DNA of 64,000 nucleotides from Alphaproteobacteria bacterium. GTDB taxonomy: Bacteria; Pseudomonadota; Alphaproteobacteria; Rs-D84. Below the pieces are notes generated by a model that saw nothing but the letters and a program-made list of their open reading frames with translations, had not been told where the DNA came from and did no database searches. The stretch is taken from NCBI GenBank assembly GCA_017535105.1, contig JAFXUI010000001.1:80945-144944 (forward strand). The letters run 5' to 3'. Below are positions 4,273 through 57,927 of the stretch, piece by piece. Position numbers and translations under genes: made by a program. Numbering within the stretch: position 1 is the first letter of the stretch; each line of letters opens with the position of its first letter.

Positions 4273-5421
4273 ATGCAACACGCTCAGACACGCGTTTCTA
4301 ATGCAGATATGATGCGGTTATCTGAAAAGATGTCGCGTTTTTCGTGGGCATTATTTGCGCCGGTATGTATTGTTTTGGCAATGTCCATTGTCGTGCTGTA
4401 TTCTGCGGGACACGGGTCGTGGCAACCGTTTGCTTTTTCACAACTGATGAAAATACTTTTGGGGTTGGTTGTATTTTTCTTTGTCTCATTATCAAATATT
4501 AAACCGTGGATAAAGTCTGCGTATCTTATATATGCCATTGCACTTATTATGATTATTCTTGTGACATTTGTCGGGCACACGGGTATGGGGGCGCAACGTT
4601 GGCTAAACCTTGGATTTATACACATACAGCCGTCCGAATTTATTAAAATCGCACTTGTTATGGCGTTGGCACGATATTTTGCGTGGATGAATTCCACCGA
4701 ACTTACCCAGATTAAACATTATATCATACCCGTATTTTTATTGCTTGTTCCGTTTGGTTTAATTGTAGCCCAACCCGATTTAGGAACCGCATTGTCATTG
4801 GCACTTATTACCGTTGGTGTATTTTATATTGTTGGTGCACCAAAAAAATGGTTTGCAATTGCGTTAATACTTGGGATATTGGCGGCGCCAGCGGTTTGGT
4901 TTGGCGGTATGCACGATTACCAGCGTGACCGAATAATTACATTTATCAACCCCGATTATGATGCGCGCGGAGTGGGGTACCAAATAACCCAGGCAAAAAT
5001 CGCATTTGGCAGTGGCGGCTTTACAGGCAAGGGTTATATGCAAGGCTCACAATCACAGCAATCGTTTTTACCAGAAAAACAAACAGATTTTATCTTCACA
5101 ATGCTTGGGGAAGAGTTTGGTTTTATCGGCGCATTATCACTGCTTATTTTGTACAGTTGGATAATCATTATACTGTTCTGGTGCGCCAAAACGTGCCGAA
5201 ATCGGTTTGGTCAATTAATGTGTTTCGGTTTTATGTTGAACTTTTTTATTTATTACTTTATAAATATTGCCATGGTTTTGGGACTGATGCCAACTGTGGG
5301 CGTGCCATTACCGCTTATGTCGTTCGGCGGCAGCAGTTTGCTTTCAATTATGTTTGGATTCGGACTTGCCCAAAACGCACATATTCATAAAGACCAACAA
5401 TTGTCTGCCAAAGGAAGTTAA
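4273..5421 (+). CDS. rodA: Peptidoglycan glycosyltransferase RodA (SEDS family)
   Basis: 382-aa polytopic protein of FtsW/RodA/SpoVE family immediately after mrdA. Confidence 0.9.
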   Translation: MQHAQTRVSNADMMRLSEKMSRFSWALFAPVCIVLAMSIVVLYSAGHGSWQPFAFSQLMKILLGLVVFFFVSLSNIKPWIKSAYLIYAIALIMIILVTFVGHTGMGAQRWLNLGFIHIQPSEFIKIALVMALARYFAWMNSTELTQIKHYIIPVFLLLVPFGLIVAQPDLGTALSLALITVGVFYIVGAPKKWFAIALILGILAAPAVWFGGMHDYQRDRIITFINPDYDARGVGYQITQAKIAFGSGGFTGKGYMQGSQSQQSFLPEKQTDFIFTMLGEEFGFIGALSLLILYSWIIIILFWCAKTCRNRFGQLMCFGFMLNFFIYYFINIAMVLGLMPTVGVPLPLMSFGGSSLLSIMFGFGLAQNAHIHKDQQLSAKGS

Positions 5422-9383: not shown

Positions 9384-9409
9384 GAATAACAATTGAAAGG
9401 AGAATGTCG

Positions 9410-11611
9410 ATGAAATCGCTTTTCACGCTTGTTATTGCGCTATTTTTGGTGGCACCGGTTCACGCCGAAACTGACGTGTCTTCGCGTGGCACATCACGTG
9501 TTTTACCATCGGGGGCAACTGCGATTGGTTCTGGGCGTGCGTCTGGAACGGTTGCAACTTCTCGTGGTGCACGTACTGCGACGGCGAATGTTGCGCGTCG
9601 TGCTACAACCGCCCGTACGGCTACACAAACCCCGGGTGTTGTTGCGCGTGTTGGAACGCAAACTGTTGCCGTAACGGAAAGTGGATCTTCCACCCGTATC
9701 GGTTCACGCGTACCGGGTGTTGCACGTGCCCCATCGATCAGTGTTTCATCATCGACAACGACTATTACTAAACCAACAGTCGAAGAAACAATTTCCACAA
9801 TGGAATCTGTTGCGGAATTGTCCGATCACTGCAAGGCACAATATATGGCGTGTATGGATAACTTCTGTAACGTCTTGGACGATAACCAGGGTCGTTGCAC
9901 ATGTAGTAAGAATGTCCGTAACTATGAAAAGACCGAAGAAGCATTGAAAACAGCAACCGAAGAATTGCAAGATGTTGCACAAAAGATTCAATACATCGGT
10001 TTGACAAGTGAAGAAATTGTTACATTGTTCACTCAGACAGAGGCTGAATTGGCAATGCAAAACAATTCGGACAGCACGAAACTTAAAAATGACCTTGATC
10101 GTATTAAAAATATGATTGTTGGTGTTAAAAGTGGTTCCGCCAGTTCAATTGGTGATACTACTTCGGGCATCAGTTTGGACTTGTCCAATCTGTTAAGTTT
10201 CAATATCGACAGTACTGGCTTTGATATCACATCATTGTTCACAACAACAACAAACAACAACACTGCAGCAATCACCAATCAACGTGGTGAAGCATTATAT
10301 AAAAGTGCTGCGGCACGTTGTAAAGCGGCTGTGTTGAACAGTTGTGCGTCCCAAGGTGTTGAAATTGGTGTTATCGTCAATTACTATGATATGGAAATTG
10401 ATAAACAGTGCATCTTGTACGAACGTGCGTTGACCGATGCAAATGATCAAATGGTTGCAACGGTGCGTAATGCAAAGACCGTTTTACAAAAGGCACGTTT
10501 GATGGTTGCACAGCAAAAGAATCAATATGACCTGCGTGGTTGTATCAGTGCGCTTGATTCATGTATGCAAGACGACTATGTCTGTGGCACTGATTACGAA
10601 GATTGTGTTGACCCATCTGGTAAATATATCGTAGATGGCGAAGTCGTAGCTGGTTCGATGCCTGGTATATCTGGTGGTATGTGGAAAAAGACAACCACCT
10701 CAGGATCAGGCTCCAGTGCCACCACAACGACAACCACTGAAGCCAACGCACAAAAGGGTTTATATATGACATGGAATCATGGTTCAAGTGGTTCTGAGAA
10801 AAACATTTGGTCACCAAAGGAAGCAGCAACTGGATATATCCCCTATACGATACAACAGTATATTGCTGATACCGTGTCATTAAGCAGTGCGACAAATGGT
10901 GCGACATCATCTGAAATGTCAGTGTATCTGCAGAACAAGCTGGGTTATCATGATGATGCGACCGGCCGTAACTATGGTATGTGCATATCGGTATTGAATA
11001 AATGCCAAGATTACACATACAGCGGTGGTAAATATACACCAGAAGGTAGTGCTGTGATTGCCGGATGGATGGAACGTGCATTACGTCAGATTAAGGTAAC
11101 TCAAGATACTATCTTGTCAAAGTATGCTCAGAGCTGTATTTCCGACGTAACATCATGCTTAAGCCAGAATAACTATTCATTCTATGCATCATCGTCTGCA
11201 TCAGCGGCATCTTCGTCTAATCCGACAAATATGGCGATTAGAGCTTGCTTGCCGGTTATCAATACTTGCCGTTCGGTTACATTAGGCCTTACCGACAAAG
11301 ACGTGACTATTGATGATTTGGATCCGATTTATAAATGGTTGGATGCTGCTATCGCAACATCGTTCAAAGATTCTTGTCAAAAGACTGGTGGAACATGGAC
11401 AGACGCAACTGGTGTGTGTGCATGTGCAACGGGATCAACATTGTCAAATGGTGCTTGTACTCCTCCTGCATTACCAAAGACACAAGCCGCGTGTAGTGGT
11501 ATAGCCAATGCAGAATGGAAAAACAGTGCATGTGCTTGTAAGTCTAATTATACTCCTGACTACAGTGGTTCAGTGGCAGCGTGTGTTGCGACAACGACAT
11601 CAGGCACCTAA
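9410..11611 (+). CDS. Large secreted cysteine-rich protein (signal peptide, R/T/A-rich low-complexity N-region, about 40 Cys in C-terminal two-thirds); function unknown
   Basis: ORF 9404..11611; ATG at 9410 has better RBS spacing; MKSLFTLVIALFLVAPVHA signal peptide; repeated CxC and CxxC motifs to the C-terminus. Confidence 0.7.
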   Translation: MKSLFTLVIALFLVAPVHAETDVSSRGTSRVLPSGATAIGSGRASGTVATSRGARTATANVARRATTARTATQTPGVVARVGTQTVAVTESGSSTRIGSRVPGVARAPSISVSSSTTTITKPTVEETISTMESVAELSDHCKAQYMACMDNFCNVLDDNQGRCTCSKNVRNYEKTEEALKTATEELQDVAQKIQYIGLTSEEIVTLFTQTEAELAMQNNSDSTKLKNDLDRIKNMIVGVKSGSASSIGDTTSGISLDLSNLLSFNIDSTGFDITSLFTTTTNNNTAAITNQRGEALYKSAAARCKAAVLNSCASQGVEIGVIVNYYDMEIDKQCILYERALTDANDQMVATVRNAKTVLQKARLMVAQQKNQYDLRGCISALDSCMQDDYVCGTDYEDCVDPSGKYIVDGEVVAGSMPGISGGMWKKTTTSGSGSSATTTTTTEANAQKGLYMTWNHGSSGSEKNIWSPKEAATGYIPYTIQQYIADTVSLSSATNGATSSEMSVYLQNKLGYHDDATGRNYGMCISVLNKCQDYTYSGGKYTPEGSAVIAGWMERALRQIKVTQDTILSKYAQSCISDVTSCLSQNNYSFYASSSASAASSSNPTNMAIRACLPVINTCRSVTLGLTDKDVTIDDLDPIYKWLDAAIATSFKDSCQKTGGTWTDATGVCACATGSTLSNGACTPPALPKTQAACSGIANAEWKNSACACKSNYTPDYSGSVAACVATTTSGT

Positions 11612-11631: not shown

Positions 11632-11660
11632 ACCGCCCAATCGGGCGGTTTTTTGTTTTG
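11632..11660 (+). terminator. Rho-independent terminator
   Basis: AACCGCCCAATCGGGCGGTTTTTTGTTTT. Confidence 0.6.
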
Positions 11661-11713
11661 GTATTCTTACTTGTGTCATTCCCGCGAAGGCGGGAATCTA
11701 TTGCCCCGCAGGG
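11660..11713 (+). repeat. Palindromic interspersed repeat, copy A (TGTCATYCCCGCGAAGGCGGGRATCYANTGCCCCRCAGGG family)
   Basis: 46-nt identity with copy B at 11829; internal hairpin TTCCCGC-GAAG-GCGGGAA. Confidence 0.7.
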
Positions 11714-11828
11714 TTTATTATGCTTACATGCGGCGCATCGTTCGCAACATTGTTGCTCACTTTAGATACCCACCTGCGTGGGTATGACGACTTTTTTGAT
11801 TATTCTTATACTATATTTTTCTTGTCGC

Positions 11829-11880
11829 GGTATTCTTACTTGTGTCATTCCCGCGAAGGCGGGAATCTATTGCCACGCAG
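11829..11880 (+). repeat. Palindromic interspersed repeat, copy B (direct repeat of copy A, 169 bp downstream)
   Basis: ggtattcttacttgtgtcattcccgcgaaggcgggaatctattgcc identical to copy A. Confidence 0.7.
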
Positions 11881-11888
11881 TGACCACT

Positions 11889-12209
11889 TTACATATTATG
11901 ATCATATCCAAAAGCTTCTAAAACTTCTGGATATAAATCTTTCCAATCAGGATTTTTCTGAATAATCAACCGTAATTTCCAATTACGATTCCATTTTTTC
12001 AATTCTCTCTCACGATAAACCATATTATTCATATCATCAATTTGTTCATAATATACCAGAATATTACAATTATATTTCGCAGTGAAAGAGTTCGGATAAA
12101 CTTTGTTTTTATGCTCAAATACACGACCAACTAAATCAGATGTTGAACCAATGTATAATGTTCCCATTGGTGCACTTGCCATAATATAAATATAACCGTG
12201 TTTTTCCAT
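11889..12209 (-). CDS. GIY-YIG nuclease family protein (UPF0213-like)
   Basis: MEKHGYIYIMASAPMGTLYIGSTSDLVGRVFEHK... GIY...YIG motif with conserved R and E; ORF-track start 12233 is a TTG extension, ATG at 12209. Confidence 0.75.
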   Translation of the reverse strand: MEKHGYIYIMASAPMGTLYIGSTSDLVGRVFEHKNKVYPNSFTAKYNCNILVYYEQIDDMNNMVYRERELKKWNRNWKLRLIIQKNPDWKDLYPEVLEAFGYDHNM

Positions 12210-12250
12210 ACTGAAAATTTTAACAATAACCAATTATTATTGCAAGTTGA

Positions 12251-12290
12251 CCCTGTGGGGCAGTGGATCCCCGCCTTCGCGGGGATGACA
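12251..12290 (-). repeat. Palindromic interspersed repeat, copy C (inverted orientation)
   Basis: Reverse complement tgtcatccccgcgaaggcggggatccactgccccacaggg matches family consensus and copy D nearly exactly. Confidence 0.7.
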
Positions 12291-12354
12291 ATAAAACGAA
12301 ATATGCGTAGAAATCACTGTTTTTGTATCACAACAGGATAATGTGTCACACCAC

Positions 12355-13454: not shown

Positions 13455-14144
13455 ATGCGTAATATGTCATACATGTGGGAAAATTTCAATATAAAACCAA
13501 TGCCCGCGGAAACAATTGTTTACCGCGATGGTGAATATTGCGCCGAACTTTCTACAATAAAAAATGGCCCGATAAATAAAAATTATGTTTTACCAGTTCA
13601 TATTATTTATGTTGGTGAAATTGCCGGTAAAAAAGAATTAAATATCGATGTAAATATCGATAATCAACCGGTCTTTTTATCGGTAAATATAAAAAATAAA
13701 TTACCGGCCTTTTTTAATATTTTTATCAAAAACACCGGTAAAAATTCTGAAATTCGTGGGCATATTATTTTGGATAATAATGGTTCATTGGAATATAATT
13801 GTACCGCCGAACATTTGTCGGCAAATACCGGTGTTTTTTTACAAAATAAACTTATTGCTAATAAAAATTCTGTATCTAAATTATCGGGTGTCGCAATTAT
13901 AAATAAAGATTGTCCGGAATGTAATTCAGATATATCTTTTTCAGCCATCGCTGATAAAGATGCAAAAATTGAATTTTTACCGGCGCAGCGCATTTCGTCC
14001 GTACCACAAAATGCGGGGCACAGTGCATCGATTTATTCACCTAAACCAATCCAGATTCAATTTTTACGTTCAGCCGGTTTATCATCAACTGAAATTACTG
14101 ACGTTATGCGTGAAGCATTTATAAACGATTTTTCATTATTTTAA
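13455..14144 (+). CDS. SufB/SufD-family protein, short form (SufD-like C-terminal beta-helix)
   Basis: C-terminal HSASIYSPKPIQIQFLRSAGLSSTEITDVMREAFINDF aligns with the SufD C-terminus (HGATVGQLDDEALFYLRSRGISQQDAQQMIIYAF); only 229 aa and no sufB/sufC neighbours; start uncertain because the divergent gap to ychF is only 20 bp. Confidence 0.45.
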   Translation: MRNMSYMWENFNIKPMPAETIVYRDGEYCAELSTIKNGPINKNYVLPVHIIYVGEIAGKKELNIDVNIDNQPVFLSVNIKNKLPAFFNIFIKNTGKNSEIRGHIILDNNGSLEYNCTAEHLSANTGVFLQNKLIANKNSVSKLSGVAIINKDCPECNSDISFSAIADKDAKIEFLPAQRISSVPQNAGHSASIYSPKPIQIQFLRSAGLSSTEITDVMREAFINDFSLF

Positions 14145-14448: not shown

Positions 14449-14643
14449 TTGTTGAAAAAAGTTATTAGTAATTTTTTAACAAGTTTTTAACAATTTTTTC
14501 CCAGAAATCTAATATTTTTTAACAAATTGTTGAAAAAATAATCATTATTTTAACATGTTGAAAAATACCTATTTTTGAACCAAATAAACTTTTTCATAAA
14601 AACACTTTTTATACTTGTTAAAAATTGTTGAAATTATTATAAT
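14449..14643 (+). promoter_or_regulatory. AT-rich control region upstream of virB3: four copies of TTGTTGAAAAA (14449, 14527, 14555, 14625), interleaved TTAACAA motifs, promoter TTGTTA(14616)-16 nt-TATAAT(14638)
   Basis: Direct repeats seen in sequence; -35/-10 spacing 16; GGAGAG RBS before ATG 14663. Confidence 0.45.
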
Positions 14644-18027: not shown

Positions 18028-18282
18028 TTATTTTTGATTATCTGGGTTATTTGGGTCATCGTGAATATATTTTACAAAGTCATCAATCTTTTGTCCGGTC
18101 GAAGATAAAATCTTGGCAATACTGCCGGTTGATGGCCAACGTGGTTGACCAAATTTTGACCAGCGTTTGCTTTTATTAAATGTTGTTGGGTCTAAACCAC
18201 TTGACCGCGCAAGGCCCGAACAAGACATTCCGTGTTCGCACGCAAATTTTTCAATTGCCAACCATATCTGATCATGTGTCAT
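18028..18282 (-). CDS. Small HTH DNA-binding protein, phage CI/LexA-N-terminal-like family (paralog 1)
   Basis: 84 aa from ATG 18282 with GGGGAGAG RBS: MTHDQIWLAIEKFACEHGMSCSGLARSSGLDPTTFNKSKRWSKFGQPRWPSTGSIAKIL...; no peptidase S24 domain. Confidence 0.7.
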   Translation of the reverse strand: MTHDQIWLAIEKFACEHGMSCSGLARSSGLDPTTFNKSKRWSKFGQPRWPSTGSIAKILSSTGQKIDDFVKYIHDDPNNPDNQK

Positions 18283-18359
18283 TTTTCTCTCCCCGTTTTT
18301 GTTTTTCGGAACAGTTGAATTATGTGGCAAAAAAAGGCTTATTTTCAATAGGTTGGTTA

Positions 18360-18367
18360 TCCTAGGA
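18360..18367. promoter_or_regulatory. Palindromic motif TCCTAGGA (CCYAGGAA half-site family) upstream of paralog 1
   Basis: Perfect 8-nt palindrome about 78 bp upstream of the minus-strand HTH gene start. Confidence 0.3.
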
Positions 18368-18541
18368 AATATTAGAACAAATAAAAATGATGATATGTTT
18401 TTATAAAAATACATAAAATATATTAGGAAAAATTGTCAATTTATAATAGATATTTATGTGCTGTATGTACCTGTTTTCCAAGTTTTTTTAATATAACGAT
18501 TCCTTTTTTAGAAACCCATTACATAAAAATGGGATAACAAA

Positions 18542-20554: not shown

Positions 20555-20631
<77 letters not shown>

Positions 20632-20706: not shown

Positions 20707-20746
20707 TGTCATCCCCGCGAAGGCGGGGATCCAGTGCCCCGCAGGG
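20707..20746 (+). repeat. Palindromic interspersed repeat, copy D
   Basis: tgtcatccccgcgaaggcggggatccagtgccccgcaggg. Confidence 0.7.
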
Positions 20747-20799
20747 AATTTATAATTGTGTCGCGACAAAGTCGCGTGCATTGTTATTTACTGTCTGCG

Positions 20800-20835
20800 A
20801 CGCAGTGGATACCGGCCTTCGCCGGTATGACGAGT
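20800..20835 (-). repeat. Palindromic interspersed repeat, diverged copy E (inverted)
   Basis: Reverse complement cactcgtcataccggcgaaggccggtatccactgcg; same architecture with CCGGCGAAGGCCGG core. Confidence 0.5.
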
Positions 20836-20909: not shown

Positions 20910-21713
20910 ATGGCAAAAAAGAAAAGTTTGTTTAGACGGGTATGGAAGGGGTTTTGGGACATTGTTTTAAGCATTGGGCTTATACAATGGCTGATTGCCG
21001 TACTTATTGCGACACCAATTTGGTTTGTATATTTGACAAGTCGTATAAAAATTACGGGCTATGAAATATTTAAGCAATACCGGAAAAAACCGGCCATATT
21101 TGTATTCTGGCATGGGCGCAGTATGATGTTATCGCCAATTATTGCGGTTGGTGGTATGCGGGCGTATGCAATATCCAGCAAGCATCACGATGGGCGCATA
21201 ATGGCCAAGGTGCAACGTTTATTCGGTTTGCGTCCGATTTACGGGTCAACAACGGACGGTGGGTTGTCGGTGTTGCGTGGCGGTTTGCGCGTGTTGGCGG
21301 ACGGTCGCTATTCGTTGTGTATTTCACCAGACGGGCCGGGGGGACCATCGTTGCGTGTTCAAGACGGCGCGTTATATTTTGCTAAAATGAGTGGTGCGCC
21401 AATTATTCCAGTGTGTTATTCTGCATCGCGTGCATGGTTTATGAATCGCTGGGACCGGTATTTAATTGTGAAACCTTTTTCACGTGTAAAGTGTGTTTTG
21501 GGTGATCCGATTTTTGTGCCACGTCGTGCGACTGAAACAGAGTTTAATGAAATCAAAAATTCGCTTGAAAAATATATGGTTGATATGGTCCATAAAATGG
21601 ACGGCGAATTTAATCATAAAATGGTAGAGCAAGATTACAAGGCGGGTCGGTTCAAGCGGGAATTGCGTGCGGCACGTGCCGAACGCCGCAATAAAAAGAA
21701 AGGGTTGATATAA
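20910..21713 (+). CDS. DUF374-domain lysophospholipid acyltransferase-family protein (classically linked to kdtA/lpxK)
   Basis: 267 aa from ATG 20910 (ORF-track N-extension overlaps the tRNA and repeats and is spurious); TM anchor then IFVFWHGRSMM...; TAATG overlap with lpxK. Confidence 0.7.
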   Translation: MAKKKSLFRRVWKGFWDIVLSIGLIQWLIAVLIATPIWFVYLTSRIKITGYEIFKQYRKKPAIFVFWHGRSMMLSPIIAVGGMRAYAISSKHHDGRIMAKVQRLFGLRPIYGSTTDGGLSVLRGGLRVLADGRYSLCISPDGPGGPSLRVQDGALYFAKMSGAPIIPVCYSASRAWFMNRWDRYLIVKPFSRVKCVLGDPIFVPRRATETEFNEIKNSLEKYMVDMVHKMDGEFNHKMVEQDYKAGRFKRELRAARAERRNKKKGLI

Positions 21714-28741: not shown

Positions 28742-28757
28742 AGTTGAAATAAAAAAA

Positions 28758-28782
28758 TACCGGCAAATGCCGGTATTTTTTA
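28758..28782 (+). terminator. Bidirectional rho-independent terminator (CCGGCAAATGCCGG family)
   Basis: AAAAAAATACCGGCAAATGCCGGTATTTTTTATT. Confidence 0.7.
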
Positions 28783-28793
28783 TTGTTTTTTTA

Positions 28794-33891: not shown

Positions 33892-33905
33892 CTAATTTAA
33901 AAAAA

Positions 33906-33928
33906 CACCGGCATTTGCCGGTGTTTTT
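33906..33928 (+). terminator. Bidirectional terminator (CCGGCATTTGCCGG family)
   Basis: AAAAACACCGGCATTTGCCGGTGTTTTTAC. Confidence 0.7.
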
Positions 33929-34289
33929 ACATAAGGAATATCAGGTATATCCACAATAACACAACAGATGTGATTGTTATAAAGACAATCGCACTGCCGA
34001 TGTCTTTGGCGCGTTTAGACAGTTTGTTCTTTTCCGGACCAATACGATCAACAACCGTTTCAATCGCGGTGTTGATAAGTTCTGCAAGTATGATAAAGAC
34101 CAAAGAAAATATCATCAAAATATGCGATATTGTTGGCACGTCTATGAAGAACTGTATTGCGATACCAATAATACAAAGAATTAAATCTTGGCGAAAGGCA
34201 GCCTCGGTCCTAAAAACAGAGGCAAGGCCACTGAAAGAATAGCCAAAAGCGTGAATTATGCGGTTTATTCCGGTATATTTTGATTTCAT
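33927..34289 (-). CDS. dgkA: Diacylglycerol kinase (prokaryotic DgkA)
   Basis: 120 aa, three TMs, EAAFRQDL.. DgkA signature. Confidence 0.85.
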   Translation of the reverse strand: MKSKYTGINRIIHAFGYSFSGLASVFRTEAAFRQDLILCIIGIAIQFFIDVPTISHILMIFSLVFIILAELINTAIETVVDRIGPEKNKLSKRAKDIGSAIVFITITSVVLLWIYLIFLM

Positions 34290-37814: not shown

Positions 37815-37826
37815 ATATTGAAAAAG

Positions 37827-37846
37827 CCGGCAAATGCCGGTTTTTT
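37827..37846 (+). terminator. Terminator (CCGGCAAATGCCGG family)
   Basis: AAAAAGCCGGCAAATGCCGGTTTTTTATT. Confidence 0.7.
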
Positions 37847-37933
37847 ATTATGCCTAAATACATATTGATTTTTGGGCAACCGTCTATTAAAATGAAATCA
37901 CTTTAATTATAAGAAAAGTCAAGGAATACCGAA

Positions 37934-38554: not shown

Positions 38555-38574
38555 ACAGGTACAAGAAATAAAAA

Positions 38575-38598
38575 CACCGGCGATTGCCGGTGTTTTTT
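38575..38598 (+). terminator. Bidirectional terminator (CCGGCGATTGCCGG family)
   Basis: AAAAACACCGGCGATTGCCGGTGTTTTTTGA. Confidence 0.7.
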
Positions 38599-38604
38599 GA
38601 TTAA

Positions 38605-41120: not shown

Positions 41121-42893
41121 ATGTTATCGTTAAAATCAAAGTATCGTACACATACTTGTGGCGAACTGAATGAAAAAAACGTTGGTGAAACTGTAACTCT
41201 GTCGGGGTGGGTACATCGTAAGCGCGACCATGGGTCATTGTTGTTCGTGGACTTGCGCGATAATTATGGTGTTACCCAGATTGTTTTTGATGGTGGTAAT
41301 GAAGCGTTGGAACGTGTTCATCCGGAATCAGTGATTCAAATTACAGGTATGGTTGTCGCGCGTGACGCAGAACAAATAAATGACAAAATTCCAACGGGTC
41401 ATATTGAAATTCAGGCAACTGACTGGCGTGTTTTAACTGCGGCTGCTGCATTACCATTCCCAGTATTTGGTGATGAAGATATTGGCGAAGAATTGCGCTA
41501 TAAATATCGTTTCTTGGACTTGCGTCGTGAAAAATTACACAAAACAATTTTGACACGCAACAAGATGATGAAGTGGTTGCGTGATAAAATGTGGGATTTG
41601 GGATTTTCAGAATTCCAAACACCATTGCTTACCGCTGATTCACCAGAAGGGGCGCGTTGCTTCTTGGTTCCATCGCGTTTGCATCATGGTAAATTCTATG
41701 CGTTGCCCCAGGCACCACAGATGTTTAAACAGTTGTTACAGGTTGCGGGCTTTGATAGGTATTTCCAAATCGCACCATGTTTTCGTGATGAAGATTTGCG
41801 TGCCGACAGATTGTTGGAATTTTATCAGTTAGATATTGAAATGTCTTTTGTCGACCAGGGTGATATCCAGGCGGTTGGTGAAGCGGTTATGCCAGAATTG
41901 GTTCGTGCCTTTGCGCCAGACGCAAATATCTATCCGGAAATTCCACATATTTCATACGATGAAGCAATGTTGAAATATGGGTCGGATAAACCAGATTTGC
42001 GTAACCCGATTTTAATTTCAGATGTAAGTGAAATATTCCGCGGTTCTGATTTTGGAATCTTTGCGAACGCGGTTGAAAACGGCAGTGTTGTTCGTGCAAT
42101 TCCCGCACCAAATACCGCCGATAAGCCACGTTCATGGTTTGATAAATTGGGCGAGTACGCGACCAAGGAATTAGGCCTGGGCGGTTTGGGATATATCGTT
42201 TTCGCAGAAGAAGCCAAGGGCCCAGTTGCGAAAAAGTTAGACCCAGAACGTATCGCAAAATTACATGAAATTGCGGGCGACAGTGCATCGTTGTTCTTTA
42301 TTTGCGATGGCCAAGAAAACGCGTCCAAGGCCGCCGGCAAATTGCGTAATAAACTTGGGGCAGATTTGGGTTTGGTCAAAGAACGCGACTTTGCATTTTG
42401 TTGGGTTGATAACTTCCCATTCTTTGAACCAGATGAAGATCGTGGTGGTGCACCAAAGTTCACACACAACCCATTTTCATACCCGATTGTCGATTCAATC
42501 GAAGAATTATCAACGCGCGATCCGTTTACAATCAAGGCAGCGCAGTTCGATATGGTTTTGAACGGTTTGGAAATCTGCAGTGGTGGGCTTCGTAACTATA
42601 ACCCAGAAATTATGAAAAAGTGCTTTGATATCGCTGGCTATCCGATTGAAGCGGTTGAAAAGAACTTTTCAGCATTGTACACCGCCTTCCAATATGGCGC
42701 GCCACCGCACGGCGGATGCGCATTTGGTATTGACCGGTTGGTTTCAGAAATAACCGGATTTGGCGACAGTGTCCGTGATACTGTTGCGTTCCCGGCCAAC
42801 CAACGTGGACAAGATTTGTTGATGGGTTCACCGAATGAGGTTACCGAACAACAATTACGTGATGTTCATATCCAGGTCAGAAAAAAGAACTAA
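41121..42893 (+). CDS. aspS: Aspartate--tRNA ligase
   Basis: 590 aa from ATG 41121 (AAAAGGGG RBS); OB-fold N domain, class II motifs (FRDEDLRADR, GGAPPHGG...). Confidence 0.95.
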   Translation: MLSLKSKYRTHTCGELNEKNVGETVTLSGWVHRKRDHGSLLFVDLRDNYGVTQIVFDGGNEALERVHPESVIQITGMVVARDAEQINDKIPTGHIEIQATDWRVLTAAAALPFPVFGDEDIGEELRYKYRFLDLRREKLHKTILTRNKMMKWLRDKMWDLGFSEFQTPLLTADSPEGARCFLVPSRLHHGKFYALPQAPQMFKQLLQVAGFDRYFQIAPCFRDEDLRADRLLEFYQLDIEMSFVDQGDIQAVGEAVMPELVRAFAPDANIYPEIPHISYDEAMLKYGSDKPDLRNPILISDVSEIFRGSDFGIFANAVENGSVVRAIPAPNTADKPRSWFDKLGEYATKELGLGGLGYIVFAEEAKGPVAKKLDPERIAKLHEIAGDSASLFFICDGQENASKAAGKLRNKLGADLGLVKERDFAFCWVDNFPFFEPDEDRGGAPKFTHNPFSYPIVDSIEELSTRDPFTIKAAQFDMVLNGLEICSGGLRNYNPEIMKKCFDIAGYPIEAVEKNFSALYTAFQYGAPPHGGCAFGIDRLVSEITGFGDSVRDTVAFPANQRGQDLLMGSPNEVTEQQLRDVHIQVRKKN

Positions 42894-42899
42894 GAAAAA

Positions 42900-42922
42900 G
42901 CCGGTATTTACCGGCTTTTTTT
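42900..42922 (+). terminator. Bidirectional terminator (CCGGTATTTACCGG family)
   Basis: AAAAAGCCGGTATTTACCGGCTTTTTTTATAC. Confidence 0.7.
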
Positions 42923-42925
42923 ATA

Positions 42926-45400
42926 CTAAAATCTGTCGTGATTTTTCACAAATTGTCGCATATATGACGGGTCAAAGTTTTGCATAATTTCCGACAATGA
43001 ATAGATGCGTTCACCATTTGGTTGAATTGTTAAATCAATTGGTGCGGGCTCTGGTGCAGTGCCACGCATAACGATATAGAATTGTGCGGACATTGCGCCG
43101 TCATCTATCTTTAATGCGCCGGTTGCGTCAACGTGCGGAAGCGAAAGTTCCATCGCCTTGGTCGTGTGGAAATTGCCACGATCAAAATGTCCGACCAAAT
43201 GTAATGATTTCAATTTTGTTTTACCATCGTTCAATGCATCAGATAACGCATATTCTGCATTTAATATCGTTATGTTTTCTGCCGAGGCAAAGAAATTGTC
43301 TGTGCCAATGCCATAGATATATCCGCCGGTAAATGTTAAATCAATATCGCCGTTCAGGTTGTATTCGATATCGTGCGCAATACGGCCCGATGTTGTCATA
43401 GATATATCACCAGTGATGTAGGCGGTTTCAATATTTAATGGCATTGTATCGCGCAATAACAAACCACGTGTTTCGAATTTATTTAATTGTAATGTTATAT
43501 CATAATTTGTTCCGTCACGTATAATAGATGCAAGTATATTGCCACGTGCGTTATCGGTAATTGAAAACGTTTGTTTGTTTTTCTTTAGTGAATAAACAAA
43601 ATTATTATATTCGACATTGTCAAAAATCATTTTATCCGTAGATAAAGATATATTCATTCCAATATCAAACGGAATCATCAATGGGTGCATTGATAAAAAC
43701 GACAATTCTTCGTATTTATCCATATATGATGGTTGCAACAAGGAATCGATATTTAACACATCTGATTTTAATGTGATGTTATTACCAACGGCCGACCCCG
43801 TAAATACGTGATTTGCAACATTAATTGTTAAATCGGATATAACCTTGTTTTTATATTCGCCAGATACAGTATAAACAGAATCACGCAGGAAACTTAAATC
43901 GACGTTCGGAAACCATACCTTGTAATTATCGCCATAGATATAAAAGAATCCGTTTTGTATTGCCATTTGCCATGTTTTGTTGTGTGGACGAAATACAACC
44001 GCACCAGATTCCCACTCAACATCACCAACGGCATTTGCCATTTGTTCTGGTAAAAATGGTAGTTTTACACCCAACCAATCAAGTGTTTTATTGCGTGCGA
44101 ATTTGAATTCTGGACGCACTTTGTCGCCGTCAATGTATAGTGTTCCGGCAGCGTCAGCAAATTCAAAATCTACAACACCATGTGTACCGAATTGCATTGC
44201 GTATTTTTGTACAGTGTCCATGTCCGGCATTTTTATATTTGCGCGGGCGGTGATATCAAACTCGTCGCCTTTGACAAATAACGACCCGGATAAATTGCCA
44301 TGGGTATATTCGCTGCATTGCCAACTTTTTGGTCCGCCACTGAACAGGCAAGATGTGGTTTTATTATGTAACGGCACAACCAACATAACATTGTGTGCGC
44401 CGTCCGAATCAATATAGCCACCAGTTATTGCGATGTCATCTGCGATAATGTTTTTTATCTGTAATTTATCATCGGTTCCAACCGCAGAAATTTTTATATG
44501 ATTAAAAGTGTCTTTACCAAATTTCAAGTTGCCATAAAAATCAACGTTTACATTTGTATTGTGTAAAAGTTTTGGGGAATCGGCCAAAAAAGATAAATCA
44601 TAATCAAAATCATCGGAATATAACTGGACATCACGGTGACCATCGGGGGCCAGTTTAATATTACCAGTCACATTATTTACGACAATATTTCTGAAATTAA
44701 AACCGCGACCACCGTCCCATTGAAGATCCATTGTGATGTTTACAGGAAAATCTATTCTGGGTTTAGAAAATTCGAACCAATCATTTATGTTGTCTGTTTC
44801 AATAGCAAGTTGGCCTGCCGCCGAACCATCATCAAATAATTTACCGATTATTTCCAGATTGACGTTTTTGTTGCGAATTATAAATTCATCATTTTCAAAA
44901 GTGACATCATACTTATGTTGCGGTGTACGTACAGTGCCGTTAAAACGTCCGTTCATCAATTCACCACGTATAATGTCATAATCGTGCGACATAAATTCAA
45001 TGCGTGAATTATAAAGAGTGACCGGAACATGAAAGTCAACGGTATACAAACTGTCCACTTTGAACTTTGCGCCATATATCGAAATTGGCCCAGTCAGGCG
45101 AGCGTGGTGCGGGTGAATAATGCTGTGAAAAGACGCATCAAATGCGCCGGCATCGATTGTTCCAAACGGCAAAACAATATCATGGGCGACAACAGTTGCG
45201 CGTCCCAATAAACTGAAGTTTATATCGCCACGAATATCAATGGTAAGGCCGGTCTGGGCCTTGACCGCCGATTCCAGTTCGGTTTTAAGGTTATTTAATG
45301 TAAATGCGGTGGGAATAAATATGATGGCAAGAGCGGCGGCAACGACAATGCCGACGACCGTCCAACCGAACCTGCGCTTATATCTGGGCTTGATTGCCAT
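42926..45400 (-). CDS. AsmA-family outer-membrane biogenesis protein (AsmA/TamB-like, N-terminal TM anchor)
   Basis: About 824 aa from ATG 45400 (GGGGAAGAGAGAG RBS): MAIKPRYKRRFGWTVVGIVVAAALAIIFIP...; long beta-rich repetitive periplasmic domain; ORF-track N-extension overlaps uvrB and is spurious. Confidence 0.75.
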   Translation of the reverse strand: MAIKPRYKRRFGWTVVGIVVAAALAIIFIPTAFTLNNLKTELESAVKAQTGLTIDIRGDINFSLLGRATVVAHDIVLPFGTIDAGAFDASFHSIIHPHHARLTGPISIYGAKFKVDSLYTVDFHVPVTLYNSRIEFMSHDYDIIRGELMNGRFNGTVRTPQHKYDVTFENDEFIIRNKNVNLEIIGKLFDDGSAAGQLAIETDNINDWFEFSKPRIDFPVNITMDLQWDGGRGFNFRNIVVNNVTGNIKLAPDGHRDVQLYSDDFDYDLSFLADSPKLLHNTNVNVDFYGNLKFGKDTFNHIKISAVGTDDKLQIKNIIADDIAITGGYIDSDGAHNVMLVVPLHNKTTSCLFSGGPKSWQCSEYTHGNLSGSLFVKGDEFDITARANIKMPDMDTVQKYAMQFGTHGVVDFEFADAAGTLYIDGDKVRPEFKFARNKTLDWLGVKLPFLPEQMANAVGDVEWESGAVVFRPHNKTWQMAIQNGFFYIYGDNYKVWFPNVDLSFLRDSVYTVSGEYKNKVISDLTINVANHVFTGSAVGNNITLKSDVLNIDSLLQPSYMDKYEELSFLSMHPLMIPFDIGMNISLSTDKMIFDNVEYNNFVYSLKKNKQTFSITDNARGNILASIIRDGTNYDITLQLNKFETRGLLLRDTMPLNIETAYITGDISMTTSGRIAHDIEYNLNGDIDLTFTGGYIYGIGTDNFFASAENITILNAEYALSDALNDGKTKLKSLHLVGHFDRGNFHTTKAMELSLPHVDATGALKIDDGAMSAQFYIVMRGTAPEPAPIDLTIQPNGERIYSLSEIMQNFDPSYMRQFVKNHDRF

Positions 45401-47456: not shown

Positions 47457-47852
47457 ATGGAATACATATTAAATAATATTGATGAAACACGTGCGTGGGC
47501 GCGCGAATTTGCGAAAACTTTACATGCACCGGTTTGTGTTGCGTTGCACGGTGATTTGGGTATGGGAAAGTCCGAGATTGCACGTACAGTAATACAAACA
47601 CTGCGTGGTGCAGATACGATTGTGCCAAGTCCGACATTTACAATTGTACAATCATATGATGGTATTTCGCATTTCGATTTATACCGCATAAATGATAGGT
47701 CAGAATTGGTTGAAATTGGTTTGCCGTATGCAATTGCAAATGACATTACACTTATTGAATGGCCCAATATTGCGTCCGATATGTTGCCCGAAAATACGAT
47801 ACATGTTTATATCACAGAACACGGTTCCGGCCGCAAAATTGTTGTAAAATAA
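47457..47852 (+). CDS. tsaE: tRNA threonylcarbamoyladenosine biosynthesis protein TsaE (YjeE)
   Basis: 131 aa; VALHGDLGMGKSEIAR P-loop, typical TsaE. Confidence 0.85.
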   Translation: MEYILNNIDETRAWAREFAKTLHAPVCVALHGDLGMGKSEIARTVIQTLRGADTIVPSPTFTIVQSYDGISHFDLYRINDRSELVEIGLPYAIANDITLIEWPNIASDMLPENTIHVYITEHGSGRKIVVK

Positions 47853-47854
47853 AA

Positions 47855-47876
47855 GCCGGCATTTACCGGCTTTTTT
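47855..47876 (+). terminator. Bidirectional terminator (CCGGCATTTACCGG family)
   Basis: AAAAGCCGGCATTTACCGGCTTTTTTATT. Confidence 0.7.
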
Positions 47877-49650
47877 ATTGTTTTTTTAACAGTGATTGTA
47901 CGGCGACCGGAAAATCATTACTGCGGGCAAGGTATGCGCCCGATATCAATAAATCAGCTCCAGCTTCCCAACAACGTTGCGCTGTTTTTTCGTTTATTCC
48001 GCCGTCCACAGAAATTGTGAATTTTAATCCATATTTTTTACGTGTCGCCGCCAAGACAGAAATTTTATGTAAGCATGCCGGCATAAATTCTTGACCCGTC
48101 GCACCGGGTTCAACGGCCATTACCATCACTTCATCTAAATCACGCAAAATAGGTTTCAATATAGTTGGTGATGTATCTGGATTTAACGCAACACCCGCGC
48201 GCCGCCCAGATGCTTTGATTGTGCGTATCGCGCTTTTTACACCTGATGTGTTTGTTGAAACAATTACCGTATCGGCACCCGCCGCAATTGCGTCTGCCGC
48301 CCATGCGTTCGGACTTTCGGTCATTAAATGTACGTGCAGATGGGCGGTTGTTCGTGCGCGAATTGCGCGCAGTTGTTCAATACTGCCCGTGATTTTATTT
48401 ACATATAATCCATCCATTATATCAACGTGCAACATTGATATACCCGCCGCATCGAAAGTCGTGTATGTGGTTGCATCGTTCATGTTAAAGCACATCGTGC
48501 TTGGCAAAATCGGAACAAATATATGACGTTTTTTGGGCTTCTTATGAAACAATTTTAATATGCCGTCCATGCGATGTGAAATGCGTTCATTGCGTGCGAT
48601 AATTTTTGCCCGCGCATCGGCAGTTTGATTCCATATATGTTCACTTAAAGATTGGACAATCGCATCAACGTGTGCGCTTTCGGTTGGTACACCAAATGAA
48701 CTTGATATAAAGTCAACAACCCCATCGGCATCTGATGCGCCGCCCGTCACGATAATTTTTGTTGGTTGATGTTTTTCGATTGTCTGGGCTGCTGCGTATT
48801 TAATGTCTTCGATAATATTTGTCATATATGGCACGACAATATCATTTATATCGGCACGTGAAAAATCATATGCAACATCGGCGGGGGCAAAACGGTCGGT
48901 TTCTTTTGGTAACATGGTGAACACGGCACGTTTAATACGGTCGGCATCTATAAACGGTACATCAAACTTTTCAGATATGGCCGTTGTTATATTTGTGCCA
49001 CCATTTTTTGTTTTATAGTGCCAAAGGGGGCCACGGTCTGACCAAATGGACGCGGTTGTGAACATCGCGCCCAAATCAATAAACATTATTGTTTCGTGTG
49101 GCTTATGAAATGCAGAGTTTAATACAAATTGTGAATCATAAAAACCATTTGGCTGGATAAGCGCGTGACGCAAGAATGTATTTATTTCCTCAACACTGGC
49201 ACGGTTATAAAATATTGCGCCGAATACAGAAATCAATTGATTATCAATATGTCCAATTGGGGTCAACATATTATGCATATGTGGCGATGTATATTGTAAT
49301 GGAATAATATGCATCGCAAAGTGGCCGTCGGGTGTTGTGATTTGTGCCGCCTGGTGTCGGACATCGCCAGCGGTTATTTTGTGTTCGTTCGACCATATTG
49401 TGTTTTTCGCAACAATGCTGAATACAGATTCACCAAAATTGCCAGTGATATATGCGTTATCAAAATGGCGACCGATTTGTGATTCCAGTTCATCAACCAC
49501 AGATTTTATCGCATAAACAGTATCTGTTGATTCGGCGACAAACATTGCCGACTTTACAATTCGCGCATTACGAACGCGGTGCGCAATACCATGTACCGCC
49601 GATGATCCAATATCCAAACACAAAAAAGCAGAATCAATAAGATGGTTCAT
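47875..49650 (-). CDS. ftsA: FtsA-like actin-family ATPase (about 370 aa) continuing in frame into a complete ribulose-phosphate 3-epimerase domain (about 220 aa); apparent FtsA-Rpe fusion
   Basis: N-part LCLDIGSSAVHGIA (phosphate 1), IMFIDLGAMFTTASIW (phosphate 2), IIVTGGASDADGV (adenosine); basic ILKLFHKKPKKRH tail; C-part ILPS...MLHVDIMDG...VMAVEPGATGQEF...ISVDGGIN = Rpe signatures; positioned after ftsQ where ftsA then ftsZ are expected. Confidence 0.7.
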   Translation of the reverse strand: MNHLIDSAFLCLDIGSSAVHGIAHRVRNARIVKSAMFVAESTDTVYAIKSVVDELESQIGRHFDNAYITGNFGESVFSIVAKNTIWSNEHKITAGDVRHQAAQITTPDGHFAMHIIPLQYTSPHMHNMLTPIGHIDNQLISVFGAIFYNRASVEEINTFLRHALIQPNGFYDSQFVLNSAFHKPHETIMFIDLGAMFTTASIWSDRGPLWHYKTKNGGTNITTAISEKFDVPFIDADRIKRAVFTMLPKETDRFAPADVAYDFSRADINDIVVPYMTNIIEDIKYAAAQTIEKHQPTKIIVTGGASDADGVVDFISSSFGVPTESAHVDAIVQSLSEHIWNQTADARAKIIARNERISHRMDGILKLFHKKPKKRHIFVPILPSTMCFNMNDATTYTTFDAAGISMLHVDIMDGLYVNKITGSIEQLRAIRARTTAHLHVHLMTESPNAWAADAIAAGADTVIVSTNTSGVKSAIRTIKASGRRAGVALNPDTSPTILKPILRDLDEVMVMAVEPGATGQEFMPACLHKISVLAATRKKYGLKFTISVDGGINEKTAQRCWEAGADLLISGAYLARSNDFPVAVQSLLKKQ

Positions 49651-57830: not shown

Positions 57831-57868
57831 TTATAGTCGTTATTTTGGCGAATAAACAACTAAAAAAA

Positions 57869-57893
57869 CACCGGCATTTACCGGTGTTTTTTT
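57869..57893 (+). terminator. Bidirectional terminator (CCGGCATTTACCGG family)
   Basis: AAAAAAACACCGGCATTTACCGGTGTTTTTTTAT. Confidence 0.7.
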
Positions 57894-57927
57894 ATATTCT
57901 TTTGTTCGTTTTTTCGCAACAAATGAA

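Follow-up and report, generated by a model that had tools for sequence, protein, structure and literature searches.

The closest described counterpart of the locus analysed here is the Ssn family of GIY-YIG nucleases with its NTS/SRM repeats, reported by Chenal et al. (Nat Commun 2025; PMC11893778), whose founding member is SsnA of Neisseria meningitidis (NMV_0044, CAX49033.1). The Ssn nucleases are the first site-specific nucleases that cut single-stranded DNA (ssDNA) only (PMC11893778). SsnA binds its hairpin solely as ssDNA and nicks it a few nucleotides 5', and mutation of Y6, Y17 and E64 abolished cleavage (PMC11893778). In Neisseria transformation, cleavage of incoming motif-bearing ssDNA lowers its recombination (PMC11893778). 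The same authors remarked on the IS-like architecture of NTS-ssnA-NTS and suggested a present or past mobile element (PMC11893778).

The CGTC-tagged REPs form a second body of literature. Family 1 of these repeats (CGTC-1; Di Nocera et al., BMC Genomics 2013; PMC3733652) includes Neisseria dRS3 (NTS) and Rickettsia RPE-6, and is defined by a CGTC or TGTC tag, an 8-bp stem starting from AT, a 4-nt loop and a CCA-type tail, with most copies arranged as inverted dimers (PMC3733652). CGTC REPs were described as repeats that 'apparently lack a dedicated transposase' (PMC3733652). The CGTC-REP paper is not mentioned in the main text or the reference list of the Ssn paper (PMC11893778), and thus the equivalence of SRMs and CGTC REPs appears not to have been stated previously. 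A literature search on GIY-YIG together with REP, MITE, RAYT or COG2827 found nothing relevant, whereas dRS3/CGTC led to the Ssn paper.

Hairpin repeats and the nuclease cassette

We analysed a 64-kb stretch of DNA (the window, meaning the whole of that stretch) from an uncultured gut/rumen alphaproteobacterium close to 'Candidatus Enterousia'. A nuclease and repeat system of this kind is already known (2025, PMC11893778), and the window locus is a new example; on the sequence comparisons given below, it very probably belongs to the Ssn/SRM system of Chenal et al. (PMC11893778). The features of the locus are as follows.

11649-11673, plus strand: flank outside the tag, duplicated at 11818-11842, 14 nt identical (GGTATTCTTACTTG)
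11674-11713, plus strand: SRM repeat, the left one of two inverted copies without a gene (partner 11763-11789); 0 mismatches to the 40-nt consensus, SRM motif at 11674-11701, hairpin -10.8 kcal/mol
11763-11789, minus strand: diverged hairpin copy, right member of the gene-less pair with 11674-11713; tag-plus-hairpin scan, -7.1 kcal/mol, z = -5.6
11843-12290, minus strand: entire 448-bp SRM-ssn-SRM cassette, with the outward-facing tags TGTCAT...ATGACA as its bounds
11843-11882, plus strand: SRM repeat on the stop-codon side of the cassette; two consensus mismatches, SRM motif at 11843-11870, hairpin -9.7 kcal/mol
11889-12209, minus strand: ssn, GIY-YIG nuclease gene, 106 aa, single domain; PF01541, E = 2.6e-13
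12217-12245, minus strand: promoter-like site within the cassette; TTGCAA, 17 nt, TG-n-TAAAAT; 9/12 matches in the consensus scan plus the TG extension
12251-12290, minus strand: SRM repeat, promoter-side cassette end; 0 mismatches to the 40-nt consensus, SRM motif at 12263-12290, hairpin -11.6 kcal/mol
20707-20746, plus strand: SRM repeat at the left of an inverted pair (126 bp, no gene) in the tRNA-Met/DUF374 spacer; 0 mismatches, SRM motif match
20793-20832, minus strand: SRM repeat, right end of the 126-bp gene-less pair; SRM motif at 20805-20832, hairpin -11.2 kcal/mol

The window holds six copies of the repeat, arranged as three inverted pairs with their tags outward, and the repeat is built as (C/T)GTCAT, an 8-bp stem, a 4-nt loop and ATC(C/T)A. 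Four copies, 11674-11713(+), 11843-11882(+), 12251-12290(-) and 20707-20746(+), lie within two mismatches of the 40-nt consensus, for which the window scan gave a chance expectation of 0. The preliminary description of this DNA had reported a repeat family with a GC-rich hairpin, and the family is real, as are all five copies then listed. These include the fifth, called 'inverted-diverged', which is found at 20793-20832(-) (CGTCATACCGGCGAAGGCCGGTATCCAC) and shows the compensatory stem changes ACCGGC/GCCGGT; the sixth copy, at 11763-11789(-), had been missed. This sixth copy (CGTCATACCCACGCAGGTGGGTATC, parsed CGTCAT-ACCCAC-GCAG-GTGGGT-ATCTA) does not match the published SRM motif (scanned as HGTCWYN(0-2)YYVSBRHN(0-5)WNVSBRGN(0-2)RNCYNB), which the other five of the six match, with 0.045 matches expected per window. 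The strict Neisseria NTS motif is matched by none of the six.

All six copies are predicted to form ssDNA hairpins with an 8-bp stem and a 4-nt loop (-7.1 to -11.6 kcal/mol), and all six carry the tag, stem and loop of the CGTC-1 definition, with the tail reading CCA in three and CTA in three. The stem covaries: in the hairpin alignment 98.7% of the cells are paired and both-sided changes occur in five of the eight pairs, the observed value being reached in 0 of 500 shuffles. An Rfam scan of the whole window returned tRNAs only, with no family for the hairpin. Judged by their sequence, the window repeats are very probably the cognate SRMs of the nuclease and are at the same time CGTC-1 REPs, a mainly alphaproteobacterial family with which they share the tag, the AT-starting 8-bp stem, the 4-nt loop, the CCA-type tail, the intergenic position and, within the 64 kb analysed, the inverted dimers. 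That the repeats are akin to Rickettsia palindromic elements and to REPs had been raised earlier and is borne out, as CGTC-1 includes both RPE-6 and dRS3 (PMC3733652). Unlike the CGTC REPs as pictured in 2013, the window repeats, like those of the Ssn paper, enclose a nuclease gene of their own.

The ssn gene lies on the minus strand, with the 12251-12290 copy (TGTCAT-CCCCGC-GAAG-GCGGGG-ATCCAC followed by TGCCCCACAGGG) on its promoter side and the 11843 copy 6 nt past its stop codon, and the two arms form 40-nt terminal inverted repeats that are 88% complementary. The SRM motif matches stand 54 nt upstream of the ATG (12263-12290(-)) and 19 nt downstream of the stop (11843-11870(+)); the Ssn family calls for one or more SRMs no farther than 500 bp from the gene on each side, 5' and 3', and ssn has them. 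The architecture proposed earlier, a 106-aa GIY-YIG gene between inverted repeats, is confirmed at 11843-12290. The two direct copies placed before the gene and the inverted one placed after it also exist, but on the minus-strand gene the 12251 copy is the promoter-side one, and the 11674 copy belongs to the separate gene-less pair with 11763-11789 rather than to the cassette. The starts given for the direct copies, 11660 and 11829, were 14 nt too early, taking in the shared 5' stretch GGTATTCTTACTTG; with this flank, the 11674 and 11843 copies form a direct repeat of 63 nt, 92% identical, at a spacing of 169.

The hexamer columns of the promoter-like site are conserved in all five aligned cassettes. 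This site probably works as a promoter, by which ssn would be served from inside its own cassette, and since only 7 nt separate the -10 box from the ATG, the mRNA may have little or no leader.

The third pair, 20707-20832, occupies the spacer between tRNA-Met(CAT) at 20555-20631(-) and the DUF374 gene (ATG at 20911), and a 41-nt stretch at its 20707-20746(+) copy is 95% complementary to 12251-12291, one end of the cassette. The tRNA itself has a C1.A72 mismatch of the initiator type.

The nuclease and its association with the hairpin

The PF01541 domain covers residues 6-79 of the 106-aa protein, no second domain was found, and the length is under the Ssn-family limit of 150 aa for single-domain GIY-YIG proteins. 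As the reference for comparison we used the N. gonorrhoeae orthologue of SsnA rather than the N. meningitidis protein itself; it was taken for the orthologue because it is 94 aa long, carries Y6/Y17/E64 and lies in an NTS context (nine strict NTS repeats around the gene). The window protein is 46% identical to this 94-aa orthologue over 91 aa (E = 2e-30), with 90 of 94 residues (96%) covered, a level of identity that settles the fold. For the Ssn authors, a member is a protein that BLASTP aligns with Neisseria SsnA at E < 1e-10 over 75% or more of the SsnA length (PMC11893778), and the match to the gonococcal orthologue lies within both limits. They also expect cd10448 (GIY-YIG_unchar_3) as the best CDD match of a member (PMC11893778). 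By tblastn in a 7.3-Gb database, the match between the window Ssn and Neisseria SsnA has E = 3e-20. Y8, Y19 and E67 of the window protein align with Y6, Y17 and E64 of SsnA; among 26 homologues, Y19 and E67 are invariant and Y8 is nearly so.

A protein from a metagenome-assembled genome at NCBI ('GIY-YIG nuclease family protein [Alphaproteobacteria bacterium]') is 100% identical to the window protein. No NCBIfam model scored above its cutoff, PADLOC and PHROGs gave no family, and a PDB sequence search gave no match, so that sequence comparison reveals no solved Ssn structure.

The locus resembles the Ssn family in its single-domain GIY-YIG protein of about 100 aa, in the equivalents of Y6/Y17/E64, in the oriented SRMs on both sides and in the nearby gene-less copies. 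It differs from the Neisseria systems in its host, in a tag that is mostly TGTC and not CGTC, in a terminal repeat that reaches 40 nt through an added (C/T)TGCCCCGCAGGG, and in having six copies in 64 kb with no dense clusters.

Next to ssn genes of other bacteria, the same hairpin recurs. In a set of 80 species, convergent hairpins were present on both sides of the gene in 34, and at least one hairpin in 49 (more than 10 phyla); in the published survey, SRMs near ssn occurred on both sides in 42% and on at least one side in 71% (PMC11893778). Hairpin density in the 80-species set was 3.52/kb within 200 nt of ssn versus 0.108/kb beyond 500 nt, a 33-fold difference, and the tags were oriented convergently, at +43/-12 upstream and +14/-42 downstream of the gene (Fisher p = 2e-8). 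In the reverse test, in which 80 viral-contig loci were picked by the repeat alone, ssn was found in eight, each time within 250 nt of hairpins. The published association of ssn and hairpin (PMC11893778) is thus reproduced here. Whether other copies flank GIY-YIG genes had been posed as a check in the preliminary description, and they do, across bacterial phyla.

Cassettes in related genomes and alternative explanations

The SRM-ssn-SRM unit could be an autonomous IS-like mobile element, with the gene-less SRM pairs as its non-autonomous derivatives, comparable to REPINs and RAYTs; in this scheme Ssn would nick the outer borders and so set off copying or excision via host repair. This reading extends the Ssn/SRM explanation and is compatible with it, and we hold it tentatively, as a possibility that falls short of our expectation. 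Several observations argue for it. When five cassettes from four gene contexts were aligned, DNA similarity started exactly at YGTCAT and ended exactly at ATGACR between unrelated flanks, and in tblastx of the other cassette loci against the window, the cassette stretch was the sole match. The cassette proteins are 74-82% identical across these four unrelated contexts in related genomes, and Ssn is only 75% identical where YchF is 96% identical. Relatives with a 96%-identical YchF have neither the cassette nor the tRNA-Met/DUF374 pair. Even genomes that share an identical YchF protein differ, as ychF abuts dnaG in two of them (L100 and L101) and a cassette lies in between in a third (L102), and one contig has an empty ychF site and yet carries a cassette 90 kb away. 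Two relatives (L106 and L107) contain 19-21 kb syntenic to the window with zero hairpins, versus six in the window, and from their tRNA-Met/DUF374 spacer the whole 20707-20832 pair is missing. That pair has the full 40-nt terminal repeat of the cassette. The special link of the repeats to tRNA-fMet, read earlier from this position, does not hold up, as it comes down to a single intergenic pair that is absent in relatives. The IS-like architecture noted by the Ssn authors (PMC11893778) is also in line with a mobile element.

Other observations speak against this reading. Target-site duplications, for which a check had been proposed earlier, are present at none of the five cassette junction pairs. 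The search through YchF orthologues did find empty sites, but their breakpoints lie off the tags, and filled and empty sites differ beyond the cassette: some 600 bp, the last codons of dnaG among them, have taken the place of 38 bp, and at the gene-less pair about 177 bp stand against the 126-bp pair. Such differences look like segment replacement by recombination. Consequently, the mobility of the cassette is suggested only, because its junctions are not clean and no target-site duplication accompanies them. Furthermore, ssn is present in a single copy in the 64-kb window, the 14-25 nt outside the tag that are duplicated in the window are not predicted by a tag-bounded mechanism, and the nick sites of one pair would lie on opposite strands. 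The cassette contains no recognised transposase, its sole ORF being the GIY-YIG nuclease gene, and no prokaryotic IS family with a GIY-YIG fold is known. GIY-YIG nucleases act by hydrolysing DNA, and strand joining is not known of them, which also counts against a mobile element. The comparison with REPs, REPINs and RAYTs (IS200/IS605-like Y1 HUH) shows both likenesses and differences: a single-copy enzyme gene with flanking inverted hairpin repeats, repeats scattered as singlets and inverted doublets, and an enzyme that acts on ssDNA hairpins are common to both, whereas the window enzyme is a hydrolytic GIY-YIG nuclease and not an HUH tyrosine transposase with a covalent intermediate and strand rejoining, and the tag is CGTC rather than the GTAG of REPs.

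A classical GIY-YIG homing endonuclease, which would cut the duplex of an 'empty' allele and be copied in by double-strand-break repair, is very improbable. Such enzymes (I-TevI, the Seg proteins) share the catalytic fold and the presence/absence distribution with ssn, and the protein does match the group I intron endonuclease model TIGR01453 weakly (E = 2e-4, residues 6-40 only), at 21.3 bits against a cutoff of 56.05. However, a homing enzyme has a long DNA-binding domain and attacks the duplex DNA of intron-less or gene-less alleles, whereas the window protein, at 106 aa, consists of one domain and lacks a DNA-binding part; characterised Ssn members leave duplex DNA uncut (PMC11893778), so that by family no duplex-DNA activity is expected of it. 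In addition, tblastn against phage genomes gave no match to the window Ssn, and at the empty ychF-dnaG site there is no SRM that could be the target. The label 'homing-type' given to the gene earlier is wrong; the protein belongs to the Ssn family, the tested members of which cut ssDNA only.

Least probable of all is a housekeeping DNA-damage nuclease of the UPF0213/YhbQ type amid unrelated generic terminator or REP hairpins: the small size of the GIY-YIG protein, the placement of hairpins in spacers of convergent and divergent genes, where terminators are common, and a terminator hairpin in the empty ychF-dnaG site would fit it, but it is refuted by the identities to E. coli YhbQ (23%, E = 1e-5) and SsnA (46%, E = 2e-30) and by the 33-fold enrichment of hairpins, with oriented tags, at the gene, and ssn is moreover non-syntenic, missing from close relatives, and flanked by SRMs that lack the T-tract seen in the real terminators of the window. 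Neither of the two outcomes that the preliminary description had set against its own proposal occurred: the hairpin is specifically tied to the gene instead of being a generic terminator, and in place of a syntenic UPF0213 gene there is one that stands far from YhbQ and is absent from relatives with a 96%-identical YchF.

Predicted activity and significance of the window locus

For the favoured Ssn/SRM explanation, our model draws on the four enzymes tested in vitro. When single-stranded, (C/T)GTCAT-stem-loop-stem-ATCCA would fold into a hairpin, which Ssn would bind in a strand- and sequence-specific manner, nicking the same strand a few nucleotides 5' of the tag; no cutting of duplex DNA or RNA would be expected, by analogy with these enzymes. 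Nicks are predicted on the plus strand immediately to the left of 11674, 11843 and 20707, and on the minus strand immediately to the right of 11789, 12290 and 20832, which places them at the outer borders of each tag-outward pair. These exact positions are extrapolated, because the tested homologues (three from Neisseria, one from Wolbachia) vary in specificity and cut position. The role described in Neisseria transformation may not apply to a gut/rumen alphaproteobacterium. The same nicking activity could plausibly lie behind the gain, loss and exchange of SRM-bounded segments between close relatives.

The window locus adds to the Ssn family a member from an uncultured gut/rumen alphaproteobacterial lineage, and with its slightly different tag and longer, 40-nt terminal repeat it is a candidate for cutting with a new specificity. 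In two respects the results go somewhat beyond the literature. SRMs, by their sequence, correspond to the CGTC-tagged REP superfamily, previously without a known dedicated enzyme; and relatives differ in the presence of the cassette and of the gene-less pair, with similarity ending at the tags. Such presence/absence data are the type of evidence by which the authors' suggestion of NTS-ssnA-NTS as a mobile element can be tested (PMC11893778).

From the tag-bounded similarity in four contexts, the presence or absence of cassette and pair at 96-100% YchF identity, and the divergence of Ssn relative to YchF, we tentatively propose, while leaning against it on balance, that the cassette and the gene-less SRM pairs may be self-propagating, with a GIY-YIG ssDNA nickase driving their copying via host replication or repair. 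If so, the enzyme 'missing' from the CGTC-REP superfamily, to which dRS3, RPE-6 and their relatives belong, would be Ssn, and these cassettes would represent a new class of prokaryotic mobile element that uses a hydrolytic nickase instead of a transposase.

Hairpin pairs and the enclosed nuclease gene

We searched the window with the 40-nt consensus of the preliminary description, allowing two mismatches, and recovered four copies where chance predicts none. Two more came from scanning for the general form of the repeat, GTCAT followed by a stem that begins AT and is 8 bp or longer, with a loop of 3-8 nt. One is the inverted, diverged copy already noticed and the other a sixth member; the repeat family is real.

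Hairpin copies and the gene between them
11674-11713, plus strand: consensus copy
11763-11789, minus strand: sixth copy, previously overlooked; stem ACCCAC/GTGGGT
11843-11882, plus strand: consensus copy
11889-12209, minus strand: GIY-YIG ORF, 106 aa (PF01541, E = 2.6e-13)
12251-12290, minus strand: consensus copy
20707-20746, plus strand: consensus copy
20793-20832, minus strand: diverged copy; stem ACCGGC/GCCGGT in place of CCCCGC/GCGGGG

All six were predicted to fold in single-stranded DNA into an 8-bp stem with a 4-nt loop (-7.1 to -11.6 kcal/mol). They form three inverted pairs, whose tags, (C/T)GTCAT 5' of the stem, face outward. Pairs 11674...11789 and 20707...20832 are gene-less, the latter lying between an initiator-type tRNA-Met and a DUF374 gene, and pair 11843...12290 encloses the ORF, in agreement with the repeat-gene-repeat architecture first proposed. 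As the ORF is on the minus strand, the 12251-12290 copy is upstream, and the 11843 copy begins 6 nt past the stop codon. A conserved promoter-like element inside this cassette, TTGCAA-17-TGnTAAAAT, ends 7 nt before the ATG. The two leftmost plus-strand copies had been placed at 11660 and 11829; the copies are real, but those starts are 14 nt too early because both copies also have a common flank outside the tag. Segments 11649-11711 and 11818-11880 thus repeat each other directly over 63 nt at a spacing of 169 bp; of the nucleotides outside the tag, 14 are identical and 25 similar (GGTATTCTTACTTG).

These repeats belong to a described class. In CGTC-tagged REPs, a CGTC/TGTC tag precedes an 8-9 bp stem, which nearly always begins AT and is closed by a 4-5 nt loop, and a CCA tail follows. 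Most are inverted dimers and most come from Alphaproteobacteria, and according to Di Nocera et al. 2013 (PMC3733652) they "apparently lack a dedicated transposase". The window copies agree in each point with family CGTC-1, which takes in Neisseria dRS3 and Rickettsia RPE-6 (PMC3733652), so that the suspected kinship with Rickettsia palindromic and REP elements was borne out. NTS (oriented dRS3, CGTCATTCCCGCGMAVGCGGGAATCYRG) and its relatives, the Ssn-related motifs (SRMs), were later tied to a small GIY-YIG gene, ssnA, across phyla (Chenal et al. 2025, PMC11893778); that study neither lists the CGTC-REP paper among its references nor mentions it in its main text. The published SRM motif matched five of our six copies (0.045 expected per window), including one on either side of the window gene.

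SsnA recognizes the hairpin in single-stranded DNA alone, nicking a few nt 5' of it; it is inactive on duplex DNA, RNA and the complementary strand, and its cleavage is abolished by Y6A, Y17A and E64A. Each of the homologues tested from Wolbachia and two further Neisseria species shows a specificity of its own (PMC11893778). The window protein matched N. gonorrhoeae chromosomes in a plasmid collection (E = 3e-20), at a 94-aa ORF that carries Y6, Y17 and E64 amid nine strict NTS copies and that we take to be the gonococcal SsnA orthologue. In a BLASTP alignment of 91 aa the two are 46% identical (E = 2e-30; 90 of 94 residues covered), and window Y8, Y19 and E67 align with the three mutated residues. 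The plasmid records are two 2.17-Mb chromosomes filed as plasmids (PLSDB NZ_CP119140.1 and NZ_CP119142.1), and the orthologue (1489-1773 of the extracted locus) has no annotation in the accompanying table. E. coli YhbQ (UPF0213) is only 23% identical (E = 1e-5). On the group I intron endonuclease model the window protein fell far under the cutoff, and the label "homing-type" is not upheld. NCBI holds a 100% identical protein from a metagenome-assembled "Alphaproteobacteria bacterium", and YchF relatives suggest a gut/rumen group around "Candidatus Enterousia".

Association of gene and hairpin across bacteria

The repeats, convergent as in the window, also enclose an 81%-identical homologue whose gene context is entirely different. 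Scanning one genome per species gave at least 586 relatives, and we analyzed the best 80 loci, from Alpha-, Beta- and Gammaproteobacteria, Bdellovibrionales, Planctomycetota, Bacteroidota, Cyanobacteria, Patescibacteria, Zixibacteria, Chloroflexota and others. At least one hairpin was present in 49 of them, and 34 (42.5%) had a plus hairpin within 200 nt upstream together with a minus hairpin within 200 nt downstream; hairpins of this family also flank GIY-YIG genes elsewhere. This independently reproduces the published 42% with SRMs on both sides, where 71% of ssnA homologues had at least one nearby (PMC11893778). Hairpins were 33-fold denser adjoining the gene (3.52/kb) than more than 500 nt from it (0.108/kb), and orientation was skewed (upstream +43/-12, downstream +14/-42; p = 2e-8), which upholds the proposed functional link between gene and repeat and matches the Ssn system. 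The tag GTCAT and tail ATCCA were almost invariant between phyla. The stem varied with compensatory changes: 98.7% of cells were paired, both sides changed in five of eight pairs, and none of 500 shuffles reached the observed value.

In the reverse direction, among 80 viral-contig loci picked solely for the repeat core, eight had an ssn-like gene, flanked by the hairpins and in every case within 250 nt of them. At least 120 viral-classed contigs hold the exact core GTCATYCCCGCGAAGGCGGGRATCYA, these 80 IMG/VR loci (L109-L188) among them; no ssn homologue was found in the phage genome collection. Many ssn-flanking SRMs have, ~19-22 nt outside the tag, a partial copy comprising the tag and 5' stem arm alone, GTCATTCCCGC (homologue loci of other phyla L054, L075, L051, L018, L028, L022, L037 and L090), and Bdellovibrionales loci have it at both ends of one cassette. 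Such a copy might form an alternative hairpin with the 3' arm; none is present beside the window SRMs.

Probable turnover of the cassette

By analogy with the family, each SRM would fold when the region becomes single-stranded, and Ssn would bind the hairpin plus tag and tail (ATC(C/T)A) and then nick the same strand a few nt 5' of the tag. With tags outward, the nicks of a pair would fall at its outer borders, on opposite strands. We hypothesize that the nuclease could thereby mobilize the unit.

Several comparisons are in line with a mobile cassette. Cassettes of 74-82% protein identity occupy four unrelated gene contexts, and their DNA similarity starts at YGTCAT and stops at ATGACR, with unrelated flanks. 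Among contigs with an identical YchF protein, ychF and dnaG are adjacent and separated by no more than a terminator hairpin (L100, L101) or have a cassette in between (L102); a further relative also has the empty site, and a contig with the empty site carries a cassette 90 kb off. Two loci (L106, L107) are syntenic to the window over 19-21 kb without any hairpin, and their tRNA-Met/DUF374 spacer lacks the gene-less pair, so the suggested tie to tRNA-fMet does not hold. Ssn is 75% identical between relatives whose YchF is 96% identical. Against a simple transposon, we found no target-site duplication at the cassette junctions, the indels exceed the tag-bounded unit and take in the last dnaG codons, and only one ssn copy is present in 64 kb. 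The 14-25 nt duplicated outside the tag within the window would not be expected of a unit bounded by Ssn nicks. Moreover, GIY-YIG enzymes act on DNA by hydrolysis, and strand rejoining is not known from them. We read these comparisons as turnover of SRM-bounded segments, possibly by recombination between or beside nicked hairpins, and consider true transposition possible though less likely than not. An ssn cassette lies in the spacer downstream of ychF both in L102 (gene at 4435-4758) and in the window (gene at 11889-12209); the two Ssn proteins are only 75% identical against 96% for YchF, and the junction sequences differ, which suggests independent acquisition or allele replacement.

Neighborhood and possible role

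Other features of the window
9404-11611, plus strand: cassette neighbor, 735 aa, signal peptide, Cys-rich (3.5%), Ser/Thr-rich
13819-13848, 28750-28785, 33898-33933, 37817-37850, 38567-38602, 42891-42926, 47846-47881, 57861-57896: second hairpin family
14460-14536: four overlapping copies of a 23-nt unit, 11-nt periodicity, TTTTTTAACAA-like
18028-18414, minus strand: small gene, 128 aa
18564-18824, plus strand: divergently oriented paralogue, 86 aa

No Pfam domain was found in the 735-aa neighbor, whose gene is missing in relatives where ychF abuts dnaG. Similar large Cys-rich secreted ORFans lie beside ssn cassettes in two other contexts (L007 1635-4760 and 5440-7365; L091 4400-7360 and 638-2686), and the 986-aa L091 protein is 27% identical to the neighbor over 366 aa (E = 4e-16), echoing the published clustering of NTS around Neisseria surface-protein genes. 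The second hairpin family (A-tract, CACCGGCAWTTRCCGGTG, T-tract) looks like bidirectional intrinsic terminators; one occupies the empty ychF-dnaG spacer of L100 (5109-5135), and its stem ACCGGC/GCCGGT is identical to that of the diverged SRM (20805-20832). The paralogous genes have a common motif, ...CSGLA...TTFNKSKRWSK.GQPRWPSTGSIAKIL..., and no inverted repeat in the window is longer than the one they form, whose 135-nt arms are 77% complementary and separated by 482 nt.

In Neisseria, the demonstrated role is restriction of incoming motif-bearing ssDNA, and ssnA deletion gave ~five-fold more transformation with NTS-bearing DNA (PMC11893778). VirB3/VirB4 genes lie 2 kb from the window cassette, and the 14460-14536 array is in the spacer adjoining them. 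Conjugation too brings in ssDNA; to connect these genes with an Ssn role is speculation. Judged by its sequence, the window locus is a genuine, well-delimited Ssn/SRM locus, new as a member but of a kind already published in 2025. Our modest additions are the equation of the published SRM with the older CGTC-REP class and comparative evidence that the cassette and a gene-less pair have been gained or lost between close relatives.
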